A stretch of DNA of 64,000 nucleotides from Escherichia coli (GTDB lineage Bacteria; Pseudomonadota; Gammaproteobacteria; Enterobacterales; Enterobacteriaceae), in NCBI RefSeq assembly GCF_003334305.1, contig NZ_QOWS01000019.1; one strand, given 5' to 3'. This document shows positions 22,850 through 32,800 of the stretch, piece by piece. Position 1 is the stretch's first letter, and every line of letters starts with the position of its first letter. Below the pieces are notes generated by a model. It had not been told where the DNA came from. It made no database searches and was given only the letters and a program-made list of their open reading frames with translations. A program made the position numbers and the translations under genes.

Positions 22850-23170
22850 ATGAATAACGTCATCTTTGATTGGTATTTATCTAGGCAAAAATTCATTCAA
22901 CGTCCACTGCCAAGATGCAACAGGCAGAGTCCTTAACTGTCAGAATCCAAGTGCTCGAAATTATTCGAATTCCTTACTAATTCCTCCTACACAACTATTG
23001 TTATGGAAGCTTGCGAAGATGCTCACTATATGGCACGGAAATTTTCGGAAATGCGTCATAAAACAAAGCTAATACCTCCTCATTTTGTCCAACCCTTCGT
23101 TAAAATTAATAAAAATGATTTCTTTGAGGCTGAAACCATATGTGAAGTTACATCAAGCCATCAATGAGAT
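22850..23170 (+). pseudogene. IS110-family transposase N-terminal remnant (frameshifted), truncated by IS2
   Basis: Begins MNNVIF... and continues in shifted frames as ...IGIYLGKNSFNVHCQDATGRVL...; classic IS110 N-terminus pattern. Confidence 0.5.
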
Positions 23171-23337
23171 TTGTAGCATTAGGAGCTGAATCCCAGCAGA
23201 GGATTCCACTTTTCATCCGTCGTTGACAATGGCCTTGAAAAACGCCGTTACTCACCGTTCTCCTTCACGGTAATACGCAGTTATAGTTGCAGAGCAATGT
23301 AATGGATCTTTTATATTAAGAAATTGTGGATTTGCCC

Positions 23338-24243
23338 CTATATTTCCAGACATCTGTTATCACTTAACCCATTACAAGCCCGCTGCCGCAGATATTCCCG
23401 TGGCGAGCGATAACCCAGCGCACTATGCGGATGCCATTCGTTATAATGCTCGAACGCCTCTGCAAGGTTCTTTGCTGCCGTTAACCCGTCTGGTTTGGGC
23501 ATGATACTGATGTAGTCACGCTTTATCGTTTTCACGAAGCTCTCTGCTATGCCGTTACTCTCCGGACTCCGCATCGCCGTGTTCTTCGGTTCAAGCCCCA
23601 ACATCCGGGCAAACTGCCGTGTTTCATTAGCCCGGTAGCATGAACCATTATCCGTCAGCCACTCTACTGGAGACGCCGGAAGCTCGTTGCCGAAGCGGCG
23701 TTCCACCGCTCCCAGCATGACGTCCTGTACTGTTTCACTGTTGAAGCCGCCCGTAGTAACCGCCCAGTGCAGTGCCTCACGGTCACAGCAGTCCAGCGCG
23801 AACGTGACTCGCAGTTTTTCTCCGTTATCACAGCGGAACTCGAACCCGTCAGAGCACCATCGCTGATTACTTTCTTTCACAGCCACTCTGCCTGTATGTG
23901 CCCGTTTCGATGGCGGTACAGCAGGTTTTCGCTCAAGCAACAGCGCATTCTGGCGCATGATCCGGTAAACACGTTTGGCATTGATCGCAGGCATACCATC
24001 AAGTTCTGCCTGTCTGCGAAGCAGCGCCCATACCCGACGATAACCATACGTGGGCAGCTCTCCGATAACATGGTGTATACGGAGAAGCACATCCGTATCA
24101 TCAGTGTGACGACTGCGGCGGCCATCCATCCAGTCATCGGTTCGTCTGAGAATGACGTGCAACTGCGCACGCGACACCCGGAGACAACGGCTGACTAAGC
24201 TTACTCCCCATCCCCGGGCAATAAGGGCGCGTGCGCTATCCAC
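23338..24243 (-). CDS. insD: IS2 transposase OrfB (InsD)
   Basis: 301-aa ORF recognised as IS2 OrfB. Confidence 0.85.
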
Positions 24244-24566
24244 TTTTTTGCCCGTCCATATTCAACGGCTTCTTTGAGGAGTTCATTTTCCATCGTTTTC
24301 TTGCCGAGCAGGCGCTGGAGTTCTTTAATCTGCTTCATGGCGGCAGCAAGTTCAGAGGCAGGAACAACCTGTTCTCCGGCGGCGACAGCAGTAAGACTTC
24401 CTTCCTGGTATTGCTTACACCAGAGAAATAACTGGCTGGCTGCTACACCATGTTGCCGGGCAACGAGGGAGACCGTCATCCCCGGTTCAAAGCTCTGCTG
24501 AACAATTGCGATCTTTTCCTGTGTGGTACGCCGTCTGCGTTTCTCCGGCCCTAAGACATCAATCAT
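24201..24566 (-). CDS. insC: IS2 transposase OrfA (InsC)
   Basis: ORF containing [47 protein letters not shown]...; start set at MIDVL. Confidence 0.8.
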
Positions 24567-25177
24567 CTGTTCTCCAATGACTAGTCTAAAAACTAGTATT
24601 AAGACTATCACTTATTTAAGTGATACTGGTTGTCTGGAGATTCAGGGGGCCAGTCTAAGGTGCACGAATCCTAGAGGCAGAATGTTTCTCCACATGCTTG
24701 TGGAGAAACCGCCGCATTTTGCCCGTTCTGTACGATACACCGTAGCCAGAGATAAGATATTCTGTTGCTGTATGCTACATACATTACACTATACGAAATC
24801 AGGTCTGTTCAATCAGTAAGGAAATAAACGGACAAACGTTATGTAACCCAGACAGAGATATATTGTCTGGGAAAATAGTGGCTTTTGTGGCGAAAACTAG
24901 TAAAACAGCAACCCGAACCACTTGATGTGCATCGTTTTTGATTATTCCCGTATACTCTTGCAGAAGGAGTTCTCCGTCGGGCTACTGTCATGGTTAATGC
25001 GGGGAATATGGCGACAATACAACACACCTAAAAGAGTAATGGACAGATGAAGCGGTTTATTCATTTCCCATGATTCTGAGTACCTACCAAGTCTGAGTAA
25101 CCACTTTTATACTTTTAATTTTCGTTCATTTAGCTATCGTTTAATTATTATCACATAGGATTCTGCCGTTTTTAACA

Positions 25178-25486
25178 ATGCAGGATAATAAGATGAAAAA
25201 AATGTTATTTTCTGCCGCTCTGGCAATGCTTATTACAGGATGTGCTCAACAAACGTTTACTGTTGGAAACAAACCGACAGCAGTAACACCAAAGGAAACC
25301 ATCACTCATCATTTCTTCGTTTCGGGAATTGGACAAGAGAAAACTGTTGATGCAGCCAAAATTTGTGGCGGTGCAGAAAATGTTGTTAAAACAGAAACTC
25401 AGCAAACATTCGTAAATGGATTGCTCGGTTTTATCACTTTTGGCATCTATACTCCGCTGGAAGCCCGGGTATATTGCTCACAATAG
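25178..25486 (+). CDS. iss: Iss (increased serum survival) lipoprotein, Bor family
   Basis: 102-aa ORF with lipoprotein signal (LITGCAQ), recognised as Iss/Bor. Confidence 0.9.
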   Translation: MQDNKMKKMLFSAALAMLITGCAQQTFTVGNKPTAVTPKETITHHFFVSGIGQEKTVDAAKICGGAENVVKTETQQTFVNGLLGFITFGIYTPLEARVYCSQ

Positions 25487-25523
25487 TTGCCCATCGATAT
25501 GGGGAGCTCATCTGCACTGTTCA

Positions 25524-25782
25524 TTAATATACTTCTGGGCTCCCTACAGTTGTTTTTGCATAGTGATAAGCCTCTCTCTGAGGGAGGAAATAATCCTGTT
25601 CAGCGATGTCTGCCAGTCGGGGGGGCTGCATTATCCACGCCCGAGGCGGTGGTGGCTTCACGCGGGGATGGGCAGATTGATCTGATATGCAACCGACGAC
25701 GACCAGCGGCAACATCATCACGCAGAGCTTCATTTTCAGATTTGGGCCACCTTTTGATTTCTCGTTTAACTTTTGCAGTCAC
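25524..25782 (-). pseudogene. Lambdoid phage spanin remnants (Rz1-like lipoprotein and Rz C-terminal fragment)
   Basis: MKLCVMMLPLVVVGCISDQ...KPPPPRAWIMQPP is Rz1-like; the overlapping frame gives ...DDVAAGRRRLHIRSICPSPREATTASGVDNAA, Rz-like. Convergent with iss as in phage lambda. Confidence 0.6.
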
Positions 25783-26345
25783 CAGACTGTGATTTATTTT
25801 AACAAATCAATAGCTTTCATAAAATTCTCGAAGCTGAAAGCTTAACTGAACCAACCAGCCTGGCTGGTGTTTTCTAAAGACAAAAAGGCCATCAGCAAAA
25901 CACTGATAGTCTGAATCACCTTTATCAATCATGTATGAAGAAAATATGCGCAATTAGTTGACAGTGATTATCATTTTCATTAAAAAGAGCGCGTAGCATT
26001 CTTATTTCATGAGGAAATTTACCCGCCAACAACCTGAGTAGCGAAAGCTGTTCATCCCCAATATTTTTGCTGGCGGGTTCTTTTTTCTACTGTCCTCCTC
26101 CCCAGAGGAAGCATTCCCATTAATCATTACTGGCGAGGAGGCAAGAGAAAAAGTCGGTTCTTTGTCCCTAAATAACAGCATCATTTCAGTCCATGCAAAA
26201 TCTGATTTACCAGCTCACATAATAACCTGATGATACACAGTGTAAGTTCACAGAGATATTGCAATTGCCTCCGGATAAGTAAGGGGAGATTGCACTATGC
26301 AAATGCAGCACCTGAGGTTGGCTATCCTAAGCAGCCGATTATGCG

Positions 26346-27396
26346 TTGAGGCTTTCAGTGATGGCTGATATAGCAACAATGAGAATGAAGGCTCTGCACT
26401 TCTGGGATAAACACGGTATTTCTGCAGCTTCTGAAGCCTTTGGCGTATCCTGCCGCACGCTTTACTGGTGGCGTCAGTTACTGATCAAGGGAGGACCTGA
26501 GGGGCTAATCCCGCACAGTAAGGCACCTCTGGTGCGACGAAAAAAGCACTGGCATCCCGATGTGCTGAAAGAGATTCGACGCCTCAGGACAGAGCTGCCG
26601 AACCTCGGTAAAGAGCAGATTTTTGTTCGCCTGAAGCCCTGGTGCGCATAACGCCATCAGACCTGCCCGAGTGTTTCCACCATCGGCAGAATGATCGCCA
26701 CCGCACACGATAAAATGCGGATGATACCAGTACGTCTGAGCTCGCGGGGTAAGGCTCTGCTTGTCAAAAAGCGAACCACCACCCCCCCGCAGGCCAAAGC
26801 ACTACCGTCCGGTAAAGACAGGAGAGCTCATTGGGATGGACGCCATTGAGCTCAGAATGGGTGAAATGCGTCGCTATATCATTACCATGATCGACGAACA
26901 CAGCGATTATGTACTGGCGCTGGCTGTGCCGTCGCTCAACAGTGATATCGTCAATCACTTTTTCAGCCGTGCAGCCCGGCTGTTCCCTGTCGGTATCAGC
27001 CAGATCATCACAGATAACGGGAAAGAGTTCCTGGGAAGCTTTGACAAAACGCTGCAGGAAGCCGCCATCAAACACCTCTGGACCTATCCCTACACGCCAA
27101 AAATGAACGCTATCTGTGAACGTTTTAACCGGGCATTAAGAGAGCAATTCATTGAATTTAATGAAATTTTACTCTTTGAGGATCTGGCGTTGTTTAACCT
27201 GAAACTGGCGGAATATCTGGCGCTGTATAACAGCAAAAGACTCCACAAGGCGCTCGCACTAACGACGCCCGTGGAATATATTTTAAAAGAGAACAAAAAT
27301 TGCAATATGTGGTGGACCCATACACAGCAAACGCACAGGCCGCCCCGGTTGGGTAGATATGTGGGATGGCTGGTTCAGACTTCAGGATATGGTTGA
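26346..27396 (+). pseudogene. Transposase with helix-turn-helix and rve integrase core, split by frameshift
   Basis: 101-aa helix-turn-helix ORF followed in another frame by a 211-aa integrase-core ORF (...ITDNGKEFLGSFDKTLQEAAIKHLWTYPYTPKMNAICERFNRALREQF...). Confidence 0.6.
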
Positions 27397-28631
27397 GGCT
27401 GGTGATGAAGTCTCTTTATCAGGAGATCTGATCAAGAGACAGCCGCGCAGGGGGATTCACTATGCTGGATTCTTTTAACAAATTCTCCGCTAACCAAAAA
27501 ATAGACTTTTTGCATTCGTAAATGCGTTAAGAGATAATTTTTAAAGTTCCATCAATCTCCCGGCCAGTTCGTCTCGCGGCATTACTCACTATCCGCACAA
27601 CTTCAGTAAGATCATGACTTTTTCAATCGTTATCTGTTGACCAAGCTTTGAAACCACTAGCGTCCCGTCAACCTGACCTGGAATCGTCGAGAACCGCCCA
27701 TAGTTGTGAATTGGCTAGAGTGTGATGGAAAGCAACGCTAAACGACCTAGTCACACATTCTCTTTTCCCTAACAATGACCATTTAGTGAAATAACGTATC
27801 CAAAATGATGACGTGAAAGCCTGATACTGGCAGCGAAAAGCCGAAAAAACTCACCTGGTCAGGAGCAAAAATCGGATTATTCGCCAACAGCGTAATATCA
27901 GCAGTAGTTCTCGACACGCTTGCGCTATAGACAGAGGATGAAACGCTGCTGGTCGGAGTTCTCTATACATTTTTGGCGACGGCAGAACCGCTCACCAATG
28001 CCTTAACGTCTATCAGCCTTCCGGTGAGTTGGAACAGCATGCTCAGCGTTTGCAAGATATTCTCCACGGTCTGTAGCAGCGTAGGTTTCAATTTAAATAT
28101 CCCCAGATAGCCCTCTGGGAGCTTCCCTTTTTATTAAGTTTTAATTACCGTTGCAATAGTTAAATGATATTGGTAATTATTATCATTAGCATTTGTGTCT
28201 GTGTTGTTTCTGGTAAGGCTGAAAGGGAACAAACATCGCCTGTACAACGGCGTTTTTACTTACAGACCAGCGAAGGCGAGACTATCAGGATGATGCATCG
28301 TGTGTCTAAGAAATCACGGTTCTTTCCAGATTCGTTGTTCGGTCTAACACTGCACAAATGCGTCAGAACATCCCGGCGTAGCTGTCCGACGCCATTTGGG
28401 CTGTTCAACAGGACAATGGCGCGTAAGCGTTAATGGAAGTGGGGATACGGAGTTCCCTGTTCACCTGTGTATGTCACGGAAAAGTCTCTGACTGAGCTGT
28501 CCATAACGCTGGTGAAGCACAAATGGCGCAGCATCTGGTAAAGCAGGTTTAACGAAAAGTCGTGTCCTGCTGCTGGCATATGAGTGCGTCGACTGCCTGA
28601 TTTAGATCGTCAAGCGGAGAGGGATTTTCTC

Positions 28632-29747
28632 ATGCGTATTTTGTTTGTAGGCCCGCCTCTCTATGGGCTGTTGTATCCTGTGCTGTCTCTGGCGCAGGCA
28701 TTTCGCGTTAACGGTCATGAAGTGCTGATCGCCAGTGGAGGACAATTCGCACAAAAAGCGGCAGAGGCCGGGTTGGTGGTGTTTGACGCCGCACCCGGTC
28801 TGGATTCCGAAGCTGGTTACCGCCACCATGAGGCACAGCGGAAAAAAAGTAATATCGGAACCCAAATGGGCAACTTCTCATTCTTCAGCGAAGAAATGGC
28901 CGACCATCTGGTGGAGTTTGCCGGACACTGGCGGCCTGACCTCATCATCTACCCTCCGCTCGGAGTCATCGGGCCGCTGATTGCCGCCAAATATGATATA
29001 CCGGTCGTGATGCAAACCGTAGGCTTCGGCCATACCCCCTGGCATATCAAGGGTGTAACGCGTTCGCTCACGGACGCCTATCGTCGCCACAATGTGGGGG
29101 CCACACCACGTGATATGGCCTGGATCGACGTAACACCGCCGAGTATGAGCATTCTGGAAAACGACGGTGAACCCATTATTCCGATGCAGTACGTCCCGTA
29201 TAACGGTGGCGCGGTGTGGGAACCATGGTGGGAGAGAAGGCCCGAGCGTAAACGTCTGCTGGTGAGTCTCGGCACTGTCAAACCGATGGTTGACGGCCTT
29301 GATCTAATCGCCTGGGTTATGGATTCTGCCAGTGAGGTCGATGCCGAGATCATCCTGCATATTTCAGCCAATGCGCGGTCCGATTTGCGCTCGCTGCCGT
29401 CAAATGTTCGCCTGGTTGACTGGATACCCATGGGTGTCTTCCTCAACGGCGCAGATGGTTTCATTCATCATGGCGGAGCAGGCAATACCCTGACAGCGCT
29501 ACACGCTGGTATTCCACAAATCGTCTTCGGCCAGGGAGCCGATCGCCCGGTAAATGCCCGCGTTGTTGCCGAACGCGGCTGCGGGATTATCCCTGGCGAC
29601 GTCGGCCTGTCGAGTAACATGATCAATGCTTTCCTCAACAATCGCTCACTTCGCAAAGCCTCTGAAGAGGTAGCAGCGGAAATGGCGGCGCAACCCTGCC
29701 CAGGTGAAGTGGCGAAAAGCCTGATCACAATGGTACAGAAAGGGTAA
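28632..29747 (+). CDS. iroB: IroB, enterobactin C-glucosyltransferase (salmochelin synthesis)
   Basis: Glycosyltransferase-family ORF; start set at MRILFVGPPL, preceded by a GGAGAGGG ribosome-binding site (371 aa). Confidence 0.9.
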   Translation: MRILFVGPPLYGLLYPVLSLAQAFRVNGHEVLIASGGQFAQKAAEAGLVVFDAAPGLDSEAGYRHHEAQRKKSNIGTQMGNFSFFSEEMADHLVEFAGHWRPDLIIYPPLGVIGPLIAAKYDIPVVMQTVGFGHTPWHIKGVTRSLTDAYRRHNVGATPRDMAWIDVTPPSMSILENDGEPIIPMQYVPYNGGAVWEPWWERRPERKRLLVSLGTVKPMVDGLDLIAWVMDSASEVDAEIILHISANARSDLRSLPSNVRLVDWIPMGVFLNGADGFIHHGGAGNTLTALHAGIPQIVFGQGADRPVNARVVAERGCGIIPGDVGLSSNMINAFLNNRSLRKASEEVAAEMAAQPCPGEVAKSLITMVQKG

Positions 29748-29886
29748 CCACTACACCTTCATGATAATCATATGCCAGCACCCATCCAGGAGTCATGCAT
29801 CCATAACAATGCGGGACCGGAGCGTGCTGGCTTTTTTGCGGAACGATCCGGCCAGTGGATCGTATTTTACAGACGGAGGAGGCTTA

Positions 29887-32800
29887 ATGCCTGCGAATCA
29901 CACTCCCACACCGGCTCAGTCATGGATAGTTCGCCTAGCGCGCGTGTGCTGGGAACGTAAGAAACTTAGTGTCATCGTGGTGGTAGCGTCAGTATCGACT
30001 ATTTTGCTGGCTGCGCTGACGCCACTGCTGACAAGACAGGCTGTGAATGACGCACTGGCGGGCAATCCGGCCCGCCTGCCGTGGCTGGCCTGCGGGTTAC
30101 TGTTGATCGCTTTTTTTGATTTCATCGGTAACTATGTGCGCCGTGGTTATGCCGGGATGCTCTCACTCTGGGTGCAGCATACCCTCAGAGGACGGGTATT
30201 CGACAGTATTCAGAAACTTGACGGCGCAGGCCAGGATGCGCTGCGCACCGGGCAGGTGATTTCACGGACCAACAGCGATCTGCAGCAGGTGCATACCCTG
30301 CTGCAGATGTGCCCGGTGCCGCTGGCAGTGTTCACTTATTACATTGCCGGCATTGCCGTGATGCTGTGGATGTCCCCTGCCATGACGCTTATCGTCGTGT
30401 GCGTACTGGTATGCCTGGCGATCACCGCGCTTCGTGCGCGTCGTAGGGTCTTCGCGCAAACCGGGCTGGCCTCGGACCAACTGGCGAATCTCACCGAACA
30501 TATACGCGAGGTGCTGGCACAGATCTCAGTGGTAAAATCCTGTGTGGCAGAGATGCGTGAAACGCACTGGCTCGATAGGCAGTCGCGGCAGATTGTGCGT
30601 GTACGCATCGGTGCGGTTATCTCGCAGGCGATGCCTGGGGCCACCATGCTGGCGCTACCGGTGCTCGGGCAAATCGTCCTGCTGTGCTACGGCGGGTGGT
30701 CGGTCATGCACGGGCGGATCGATCTCGGTACCTTCGTTGCATTCGCCAGCTTCCTCGCGATGCTGACCGGGCCAACCCGCGTACTGGCATCGTTTCTGGT
30801 TATCGCACAGCGCACTCAGGCGTCCGTGGAGCGGGTGTTTGCACTGATCGACACCCGTTCACAGATGGAGGACGGGACGGAGTCGATTAACAGTCAGGTT
30901 GTCGGACTGGAACTGGAGAATATGAGCTTTGACTACCACCATGGCGACAGACATATCCTCAGCAATATCTCCTTTTCCCTGCGCGCCGGTGAAACCGTGG
31001 CGGTGGTGGGCGCATCGGGTTCAGGAAAATCGACCCTGTTGATGCTACTGGCGCGTTTTTATGATCCCTGCTCCGGAAAGATATGGCTCAACACCAGCGA
31101 AGGCCGACAAAATCTTCGCGATATCAGACTGGAGGCGCTTCGTCGCCGGGTAGGCATCGTATTTGAAGATGCTTTTCTGTTTGCCGGTACGGTGGCGGAA
31201 AATATCGCCTATGGCCACCCTCAGGCAACGGCGGACGACATTCGCCGTGCGGCAGCTGCTGCAGGAGCCAGCGATTTTATTAACGCCCTGCCGAAAGGCT
31301 TCGATAGCCTGTTAACCGAACGGGGTACGAATCTTTCCGGCGGGCAGAGGCAGCGAATAGCGCTGGCGCGGGCGCTCATTACTGCACCGGACGTGTTAAT
31401 CCTGGATGATACTACCTCAGCGGTTGATGCTGTTACGGAAGCGGAGATTAATACCGCGCTGGGTCGCTATGCTGACGAAGGGCATATGCTGCTGGTGATT
31501 GCCCGACGGCGTTCAACACTTCAGCTAGCCAGCCGGGTTGTGGTGCTGGATAAGGGCCGTATGGTGGATACCGGAACCCCGGCAGAACTTGAAGCGCGCT
31601 GTCCGGCGTTCCGCGCACTGATGACCGGCGACAGCGATTTTCTGGCCACGTCCCACAATAGCCACAACGAATTGTGGCCGGCTGAACCAGCGACACAAGA
31701 CGATGTAACGGATACGGGGGATAAAGGTTTTGTCGCCCGTATGACCCGCGTACCGGAAAATGCAGTACAGCAGGCGCTGGCCGGTAAAGGTCGCAAAGTC
31801 ACGTCACTACTGAAGCCTGTGGCGTGGATGTTCGTCATCGCCGCTCTGCTGATCGCACTCGATTCTGCGGCAGGCGTAGGGGTACTGATACTGTTGCAGC
31901 ACGGCATTGACTCCGGTGTCGCCGCAGGCGATATGTCGATCATCGGCCTCTGTGCCCTGCTCGCCCTGTGCCTGGTCATTGTGGGCTGGTGCAGTTATTC
32001 TCTGCAGACGGTCTTCGCCGCCAGAGCGGCGGAATCAGTTCAGCATTCGGTGCGCTTGCGCAGCTTCGGCCATATGCTGCGTCTTGGACTCCCCTGGCAT
32101 GAAAAGCATGCCGATTCGCGTCTTACCCGCATGACCGTTGATGTGGACTCTCTCGCCCGCTTTCTGCAAAACGGCCTTGCCGGTGCGGCCACCAGTCTGG
32201 TGACGATGTTCGCAATCGCCGCCACCATGTTCTGGCTCGACCCGTTCCTGGCGCTGACGGCATTAAGCGCAGTGCCAGTGGCCGCACTGGCAACCATGAT
32301 TTATCGCCGCCTCAGTACCCCTGCTTATGCACAGGCACGGCTGGAAATAGGCAAAGTCAACAGCACCCTGCAGGAAAAAGTCTCTGGCCTGCGTGTCGTG
32401 CAATCGCATGGTCAGCAGGAACTGGAGGGCGCCCGGCTGCGCGCGTTATCGGAGCGTTTCCGCGCAACCCGTGTGCGAGCACAAAAATACCTTGCAGTCT
32501 ATTTTCCGTTCCTGACATTCTGCACCGAGGCCTCCTATGCCGCTGTTCTGTTAGTGGGAGCTTCGCAGGTCGCCGCTGGAGAAATGACTGCCGGGGTACT
32601 GGCGGCTTTCTTCCTGTTGCTGGGGCAATTCTATGGGCCAGTGCAGCAGTTATCAGGGATTGTCGACGCCTGGCAGCAGGCGACAGCCAGCGGCAAACAT
32701 ATTGATGAACTACTGGCGACAGAAGGCACTGAGAACCTCGGGTCCTCTTCGGTCCTCCCTGTCACCGGTGCACTGCATCTTGATGAGGTCACGTTCAGTT

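Follow-up and report, generated by a model that had tools for sequence, protein, structure and literature searches.

The iss locus and its features

The gene iss, which encodes the increased serum survival lipoprotein, was studied with its surroundings in a 64,000-nucleotide stretch of Escherichia coli DNA (contig NZ_QOWS01000019.1 of assembly GCF_003334305.1), termed the window below, to which all positions refer. The gene lies on the plus strand and is convergent with remnants of Rz and Rz1, the two spanin genes of lambdoid phages, which abut the left end of an IS200-type insertion sequence (IS). The following features were assigned:

24926..25192, plus strand: lambdoid bor/iss upstream intergenic region, contiguous with iss in an 818-bp match to 434, Turner and ev207-type phages
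25193..25486, plus strand: iss, increased serum survival lipoprotein of the Bor family, 97 amino acids plus TAG stop (RefSeq WP_000738422.1; AMRFinder 100%)
25487..25508, no strand assigned: remnant of the Rz-bor intergenic spacer (alignment to phage; folding)
25509..25743, minus strand: Rz (i-spanin) pseudogene, lambda codons 76-153 (PHROG 13; in RefSeq 'lysis system i-spanin subunit Rz', pseudo, incomplete)
25567..25743, minus strand: Rz1 (o-spanin) pseudogene in the +1 frame of Rz (PF06085, PHROG 3198; in RefSeq 'Rz1 family lipoprotein', a frameshifted, incomplete pseudogene)
25744..25875, minus strand: orphan IS200-type left end, comprising the 5' untranslated region (5'UTR) (Rfam RF01405 STnc490, model 1-124/124)

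A BLAST search of positions 24600-26350 against 50,697 phage records returned a single lambdoid block at 24926-25743 (818 bp, about 88.5% identity, E = 0). It is matched by at least 250 of these records, including 434, 21, ev207, Turner and many Stx phages, in which it falls under the Bor and Rz annotations. The block is made up of three pieces, namely, a bor-type upstream intergenic region, full-length iss and, convergent with it on the minus strand, no more than the final third of Rz together with the Rz1 gene inside it. Lambda Rz/Rz1-bor has this same gene order and convergent orientation; in the lambda annotation, S and R are followed by Rz (45966-46427), which has Rz1 (46186-46368) inside it, and then by bor on the opposite strand. 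Chance similarity to lambdoid DNA was rejected on the basis of the E values, which were 0 for the block and 1e-93 for the Rz remnant. When compared with lambda itself, 25139-25743 is 86% identical, and the match further upstream is weak because the lambda bor-upstream segment differs. The upstream region 24926-25192 as a whole has 87% identity to 434 and to the O26 prophage and 66% to lambda; in 434, this stretch is intergenic and located downstream of a DUF3950 gene. A sigma-70 consensus scan identified no plus-strand promoter upstream of iss, and the native promoter is presumably located within 24926..25192, a placement derived from homology only.

The left breakpoint of the phage-derived block lies at about 24926, and no phage match was found for the left flank (24659-24925) in the phage-record search. 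The right flank (25744-26345) was found to hold the IS200-type piece and an IS481-type end but no further phage DNA. Outside these ColV-type plasmids, both flanks are essentially absent, and no remnant of the holin (S) or endolysin (R) gene is present at the locus. The first-pass annotation had described iss as embedded in lysis-cassette debris in the interval 25178-25800. This is correct for the 3' side, where 235 bp of Rz/Rz1 persist, but neither for the 5' side nor with respect to S and R; flanking of iss by such debris on both sides was rejected, since neither flank carries further phage DNA. Similarly, the interval is lambda-like up to 25743, whereas its last 57 bases (25744-25800) belong to the IS200-type left end and the block begins upstream of it, at 24926.

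The iss gene and its product

The open reading frame (ORF) at 25178-25486 (+) reads MQDNK-MKKMLFSAALAMLITGC..., and its second ATG, at 25193, is the Bor-homologous start. An AGGA Shine-Dalgarno sequence (25182-25185) sits within the supposed 5-codon extension, and both RefSeq and AMRFinder take 25193 as the start of iss. The historical reading of Iss as a protein of 102 amino acids, which begins at the in-frame ATG at 25178, is an artefact, and the start proposed at that position in the first-pass annotation was replaced on these grounds.

Iss matches the complete Pfam model PF06291 Lambda_Bor (1-75/75, E 4.4e-31) and PHROG 260, 'Bor-like outer membrane protein' (1-97/97, E 8e-59). The NCBIfam hidden Markov models contained no relevant family for Iss or either spanin remnant and returned only sub-threshold lipoprotein noise. 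The signal peptide and the lipobox LITGC (MKKMLFSAALAMLITG|C) were read directly from the sequence, and the same motif is present in lambda Bor. Iss shares 88 of its 97 residues with lambda Bor and 96 of 97 with the Iss of the O26 prophage, and it differs from the prophage alleles by 1-2 residues. At the nucleotide level, identity is 95.6% to the allele of 434 and the O26 prophage and 90.5% to lambda bor; the donor allele is of the 434/21/'prophage iss' type and not lambda bor. Codon differences from the 434 and O26 prophage alleles comprise 11-12 synonymous and 1-2 non-synonymous changes, which therefore indicates that iss is under purifying selection. In the literature, with reference to Barondess & Beckwith 1995 and Johnson et al., iss is described as homologous to lambda bor and as conferring serum resistance, and iss/bor as prophage-borne. 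The plasmid-borne iss was reported to be required for serum survival of strain O78-9 (PMC4313913; see also PMC4723317).

Immediately 3' of the iss coding sequence, a 9-bp deletion (window 25484-25508) creates the TAG stop, where the phages have TAA. The hairpin between Rz and bor has a folding energy of -20.6 kcal/mol in lambda and of -10.8 kcal/mol in the plasmid; its stability is halved as a result of the 9-bp deletion together with one substitution.

Decay of the Rz and Rz1 remnants

The minus strand 25743-25485 aligns to lambda 46191-46451 with 23 substitutions and 3 indel events. Lambda position 46191, at which homology starts, corresponds to Rz codon 76 and to the sixth nucleotide of Rz1. 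In a BLAST search with the 257-bp Rz remnant alone, the phage records were matched with 90% identity (E 1e-93), and the Rz/Rz1 remnant was found to be 90-91% identical to lambda, 434, 21 and hundreds of prophages. Compared with phage Rz, the Rz remnant alone shows 91% identity; over the same bases, the identity of lambda vs 434 is 99.6%. This 9% divergence may reflect decay after capture or a donor lineage that has so far not been sampled.

Only the 3' 235 bp of Rz have survived, and codons 1-75, including the N-terminal membrane anchor, are absent. The start codon and ribosome-binding site of Rz1 lay beyond the breakpoint and are lost; in the 434 annotation, this ribosome-binding site is placed just upstream of the Rz1 start. 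The surviving part of Rz carries a 2-bp deletion in a G-run (25619-25625), a 1-bp insertion at 25587, a GAA>TAG change in the Rz frame at 25544-25546 and a 1-bp deletion in the stop codon (25509/25510), and the stop of Rz1 has been destroyed by a TGA>TTA change at 25568. Of the 23 substitutions, 10 are clustered in a patch of 24 nt (25664-25687), which, besides other changes, replaces Cys29 of Rz1 by Arg. From work on lambda, Cys29 and the C-terminal Rz-binding end of Rz1 matter for spanin function.

Two minus-strand ORFs still carry the traces of both genes. An ORF of 60 amino acids (...SENEALRDDVAAGRRRLHIRSICPSPREATTASGVDNAAPP...) matches the Rz family PHROG 13 at profile positions 68-117/154. 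Another of 69 amino acids (MKLCVMMLPLVVVGC...KPPPPRAWIMQPP...) matches the Rz1 family PHROG 3198 at positions 6-45/68 and Pfam PF06085 at model positions 1-24/41 only. The latter starts at the internal Met6 codon at 25733, retains the +1 frame with signal peptide and lipobox LPLVVVGC (MKLCVMMLPLVVVGC), moves into the Rz frame after about 38 amino acids and ends at a stop at 25524-25526. The Rz remnant thus has neither an N-terminal anchor nor an uninterrupted ORF of about 153 amino acids, and the Rz1 remnant has neither its native start and ribosome-binding site nor an intact mature region of 40 amino acids with Cys29 and the C-terminal end. Judged from these lesions, both fragments are non-functional pseudogenes. 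No lysis function is possible, because the Rz anchor is lost and its frame is broken by frameshifts and a stop, because Rz1 lacks its start, ribosome-binding site, Cys29 and C terminus, and because there is neither holin nor endolysin. The segment probably decays neutrally or, alternatively, derives from an unsampled lineage.

Three propositions made earlier for this locus are borne out by these data. The Rz1 and Rz fragments are convergent with iss, on the minus strand, with 90-91% identity to lambdoid Rz/Rz1; the lysis genes have been inactivated by 5' truncation, frameshifts and a stop codon; and the derivation of iss from a lambdoid prophage bor locus is supported by the 818-bp homology, the lambda gene order and the plasmid break inside Rz. 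The alignment with the lambda Rz/Rz1/bor region that the first-pass annotation had proposed as a check was carried out, and the lack of nucleotide similarity that would have spoken against the derivation was not seen (E 1e-93).

The length of the G-run at 25619-25625 differs among 21 copies (G7 in 18, G6 in 2 and G8 in 1), and in copies with G6 the Rz1 frame is regained over a stretch. This accounts for the 38-amino-acid 'rz1' coding sequence in one RefSeq record and, more generally, for the inconsistency of the RefSeq annotation between a pseudogene and an 'rz1' coding sequence, since the run length switches the Rz1 frame. The variation may be real slippage or assembly error. The Rz of the chromosomal O26 prophage is frameshifted within the same G-run.

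The IS200-type left end and its junction with Rz

The sequence adjoining the Rz remnant was identified as an IS200-type left end by a match to Rfam RF01405 at 25751-25872 (-), with 90.8 bits against a gathering score of 56. It includes a bidirectional terminator hairpin (25854-25868) and a 5'UTR stem-loop. Neither the right end nor the Y1 transposase gene tnpA of IS200 is present beside 25744-25875, where no tnpA ORF was found. The segment 25744-25875 has 76% identity to the DNA that immediately precedes an intact IS200-type transposase gene (152 amino acids) in phage Lambda_ev058. That alignment stops at the tnpA ATG, and in the plasmid the Rz sequence comes next. The junction reads ...AAAAGGTGGCCCAAAT|CTGAAAATGAAG... 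and falls where the start codon of tnpA would be, with a microhomology of 2-3 nt (AAA) to both parents; a deletion or illegitimate recombination event would have joined the tnpA start to Rz codon 76.

The published description of IS200 places a terminator hairpin at nt 12-34 and the stem-loop of the 5'UTR at nt 69-138, includes the antisense RNA art200, and treats the left-end hairpin as a bidirectional rho-independent terminator (PMC4513863). The nt 12-34 hairpin corresponds to the terminator-like site at 25854-25868 of the window. In the RefSeq records that were inspected, the IS200-type left end is unannotated. A terminator-like hairpin with a T-run (25909-25889, minus strand) precedes its outer end by a few bases, and the intact copy in Lambda_ev058 is likewise located directly after a terminator-like hairpin. 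A second IS200-type element is present at 17263-17623 (+), whose left end (17263-17386, plus strand) scores 146 bits to STnc490. Its transposase ORF matches the IS200-type TnpA of Lambda_ev058 for about the first 65 codons, then diverges and is truncated. The plasmid thus bears two defective IS200-type copies.

Plasmid context

Positions 20000-32000 are 100% identical to pECOS88 of E. coli S88 (NC_011747), to an E. coli type-strain plasmid (NZ_CP033091) and to 13 others among the matches listed. To judge from this identity, the window is part of an IncFIB conjugative ColV-type virulence plasmid. Along it, a GTP-binding protein (GTPase) gene, IS2, iss, a degenerate integrase-core (IS481-like) pseudogene and iroBCDE follow one another.

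IS2 is located at about 23328-24657, with transposase ORFs at 23338-24611 (-). It is missing from at least 10 of 20 metagenome contigs that bear the iss module, and its presence upstream of iss is therefore due to a later insertion. The empty site holds 9 nt (TGAGTGGAG) without a simple target duplication, and in one metagenome contig IS2 is shifted to the left by about 70 bp.

Between the iss module and iroB, a decayed transposase pseudogene (26346-27396, plus strand) has an integrase core domain related to the IS481-family element ISKpn28 and carries a frameshift and an internal stop. Elsewhere in the window, Rfam matches above the gathering score were found at 10038-10154, 55362-55453, 56440-56622 and 60595-60671, the families being the ALIL pseudoknot (an IS3-family frameshift element), the CopA-like antisense RNA of IncF replication control, and the antisense RNAs AS-pc02 and AS-traI. 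These matches are consistent with an IncF conjugative plasmid backbone.

Distribution of the module and search for a donor

The Rz segment shows a bimodal distribution in 5,426 complete E. coli genomes, with 650 records at 99% identity or above, about 4,018 near 88% and 5 in between. The upper class is the plasmid-type module, found at 678 places on plasmids, and the class at about 88% is the intact prophage type. Among the phage records, none was closer than 90.4% to the Rz remnant.

An intact Rz/Rz1 with the plasmid patch would be recognizable by the peptide sequence ISDQSAHPRVKPPPP and, in Rz1, by the motif ISDQSAHPR. GTDB species representatives and IMG/VR were scanned with an exact 24-mer from the patch and gave no match, although a donor differing by a single base would be missed. 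The 24-mer was found in 20 metagenome contigs. Each of these is colinear with the plasmid module on both sides of the Rz|IS200 junction, and S, R and the 5' part of Rz were absent from all 20. In all copies inspected, the arrangement from iss to the IS200 remnant is invariant.

In metagenome contig SKFA01001465.1 (L012), positions 12320-13619 are a hybrid with a prophage-type left part and a plasmid-type right part. Its left flank matches, at 100% identity, a piece of E. coli prophage DNA that bears the annotation 'homing endonuclease', and its iss has all 13 prophage-type single-nucleotide polymorphisms. From the 9-bp deletion rightward it is of the plasmid type, with the decayed Rz, the IS200 end and the IS481-like pseudogene. 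This contig may have arisen by homologous recombination or cointegration at iss, or it may be an assembly chimera; no plasmid in PLSDB has the hybrid arrangement. On the chromosome of E. coli strain N68 (NZ_CM165878.1, 2996020-2996837), a plasmid-type iss/Rz-remnant module with 100% identity was found, and 14 chromosomal places also bear the plasmid-specific left flank, which suggests that the ColV virulence region occasionally integrates into the chromosome.

Origin of the locus and alternative explanations

The explanation favored here, to which a probability of about 0.93 is assigned, is that the iss locus of this ColV/ColBM-type plasmid is an 818-bp lambdoid scrap, truncated at the IS200 end, in which iss was kept by selection and Rz/Rz1 are dead. 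On this explanation, the right end of a lambdoid prophage supplied 818 bp that became established within the virulence region of an IncF plasmid and now stand between plasmid DNA on the left and the IS200-type remnant on the right. The gene retained by selection encodes a small outer-membrane lipoprotein that would be exported by its signal peptide and lipidated at the Cys of LITGC, and Iss would raise serum survival by interfering with complement, a phenotype taken from the literature. Transcription of iss probably continues across the debris and would end at the IS200 bidirectional terminator hairpin near 25854-25875.

Nothing found contradicts the core of this explanation, and the following points weigh against parts of it. 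The plasmid copies are nearly clonal, so that their conservation is uninformative on a function of the remnants; the 69-amino-acid ORF with its intact lipobox persists; the promoter and terminator of iss are putative; and no intact Rz with the 10-substitution patch was found in phages, E. coli genomes or, as far as an exact 24-mer can detect it, in GTDB representatives and IMG/VR.

The last of these points bears on where the divergence of the remnant arose. The truncation, indels and stop could be of the plasmid era while the substitutions in Rz/Rz1, especially the patch at 25664-25687, came with the fragment from a lambdoid donor that is divergent and unsampled and may have belonged to another enterobacterial species. 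The strong clustering of the substitutions, as in phage mosaic alleles, agrees with such an origin, and the unconstrained parts have diverged alike, with 87% identity upstream and about 12 synonymous differences in the 97 codons of iss; the whole fragment would therefore be old or foreign relative to the sampled prophages. No such allele, however, was present in the 50,697 phage records (best 90.4%) or among the bimodally distributed sequences of the 5,426 E. coli genomes. The scans of GTDB representatives and IMG/VR were negative, though a donor with a single-base difference would escape them, and all 20 metagenome matches were the plasmid module itself. A divergent donor is accordingly considered unlikely, although it is the strongest of the alternatives. 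The direction of transfer leaves far less room. Transfer ran from phage to plasmid: in phages the copies are complete, whereas the one on the plasmid breaks off within a phage gene, at Rz codon 76. An origin of phage bor from plasmid iss has the homology itself in its favor and nothing more. The plasmid block covers only 818 bp and ends inside Rz, whereas in phages this DNA runs on into complete copies of Rz, R and S and into cos-proximal sequence, and the prophage form is present in about 4,100 of the 5,426 E. coli genomes as compared to about 650 records of the plasmid form. Transfer from plasmid to phage was rejected in view of the truncation of Rz at the plasmid breakpoint, and its probability is regarded as negligible.

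Other alternatives concern a possible function of the debris. It could have been recruited as the 3'UTR and terminator of iss, with transcription from the iss promoter passing antisense through the Rz remnant and the IS200 5'UTR, yielding an art200-like antisense segment and stopping at the IS200 bidirectional terminator; the iss mRNA would thereby be stabilized or regulated. The phage hairpin 3' of iss has been weakened from -20.6 to -10.8 kcal/mol and lacks a U-run; further along the plus strand, the nearest terminator-like sites are 25773-25792 and the IS200 hairpin (25854-25868), the latter of which precedes a GTTTTCT sequence and belongs to the left-end structure described as a bidirectional rho-independent terminator (PMC4513863). 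The unchanged arrangement from iss to IS200 in all copies would fit such a role, but recent common descent explains this invariance equally well, matches to a terminator consensus are weak evidence, and termination within the untranslated debris could just as well be Rho-dependent. Recruitment is hence rated as improbable, and somewhat more so than a divergent donor. In Salmonella, the 5'UTR of IS200 tnpA and the antisense art200 are Hfq-binding regulatory RNAs. The more specific proposal that the IS200 5'UTR next to iss acts as an art200-like antisense part of the iss 3'UTR that stops at the IS200 terminator, or gives rise to a 5'tnpA-like small RNA antisense into iss, is highly doubtful; if true, expression of iss or of other virulence genes would be tied to a transposon-derived RNA. 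Doubt is greater still for the 69-amino-acid minus-strand ORF (25733-25527) as a functional new small lipoprotein, composed of the Rz1 signal peptide and lipobox and of out-of-frame sequence. The frame is open, starts with ATG and has kept a hydrophobic signal sequence and the lipobox LVVVGC, and a short 'rz1' coding sequence was called here in one RefSeq record. Its native start codon and ribosome-binding site, however, are deleted, and the nearest Shine-Dalgarno-like sequence, AGGTGG, lies 13 nt upstream of the ATG and is sequestered by a stem-loop in IS200 (PMC4513863). Furthermore, the C-terminal half depends on the variable G-run (G7 18, G6 2, G8 1), with which the frame changes, only 24 of the 41 Pfam Rz1 positions match, and RefSeq usually marks a pseudogene. 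We consider a functional lipoprotein of this kind very improbable.

Prior knowledge and relevance

The homology to lambda downstream of iss was reportedly noted when the gene was first sequenced, in 1989. The locus is long known and ordinary, and the Rz and Rz1 pseudogenes are already part of the RefSeq annotation of these bases in other plasmids, made by the Prokaryotic Genome Annotation Pipeline (PGAP). The IS200 junction and its possible role as the 3' end of iss are minor details that are undescribed as far as found. A full-text literature search, the scope of which did not extend to the primary iss/bor papers (Johnson et al. 2008; Barondess & Beckwith 1995), returned no paper combining iss, Rz1, bor and serum.

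The locus is a clear record of the route by which a virulence marker in clinical use came to be on plasmids. One of the genes that define the ColV plasmids of avian pathogenic and extraintestinal pathogenic E. coli (APEC/ExPEC) arrived in a sub-kilobase scrap of lambdoid prophage, of which the lysogenic-conversion gene was kept while its lysis neighbors decayed. In addition, the Rz remnant and the IS200 junction at 25743/25744 provide a specific marker that separates plasmid-type iss from the common prophage iss/bor (about 88%).

Comparison with known systems

No difference was found between this locus and the iss loci of other ColV/ColBM-type plasmids, which agree with it in every nucleotide (100% identity) of the 12 kb compared, in gene order and in the Rz/Rz1 pseudogenes annotated in RefSeq; among plasmid copies, only the upstream IS2 insertion and the G-run length vary. 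The IS200-type piece has the terminator hairpin and 5'UTR stem-loop in the order expected for IS200 (IS200/IS605 family). Unlike IS200, it lacks the transposase, the right end and the art200 promoter, which lies within tnpA, and it is 76% identical to the phage-borne copy.

The Rz-Rz1-bor segment at the right end of the late operon of lambda, 434 and 21 contains the same genes in the same convergent arrangement as the plasmid. In these phages, Rz (153 amino acids) and Rz1 (60 amino acids) are intact and located behind holin and endolysin genes, whereas the plasmid lacks Rz codons 1-75, the Rz1 start, S and R. The defective lysis cassettes of two chromosomal E. coli prophages, DLP12, with the order essD-rrrD-rzpD/rzoD-borD, and the O26 prophage of RM8426, resemble the plasmid in that bor/iss lies next to Rz/Rz1 homologues and that the setting is non-inducible. 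However, these chromosomal cassettes keep full-length Rz, endolysin and holin, whereas the plasmid retains only a 235-bp tail of Rz, joined to an IS200 end.

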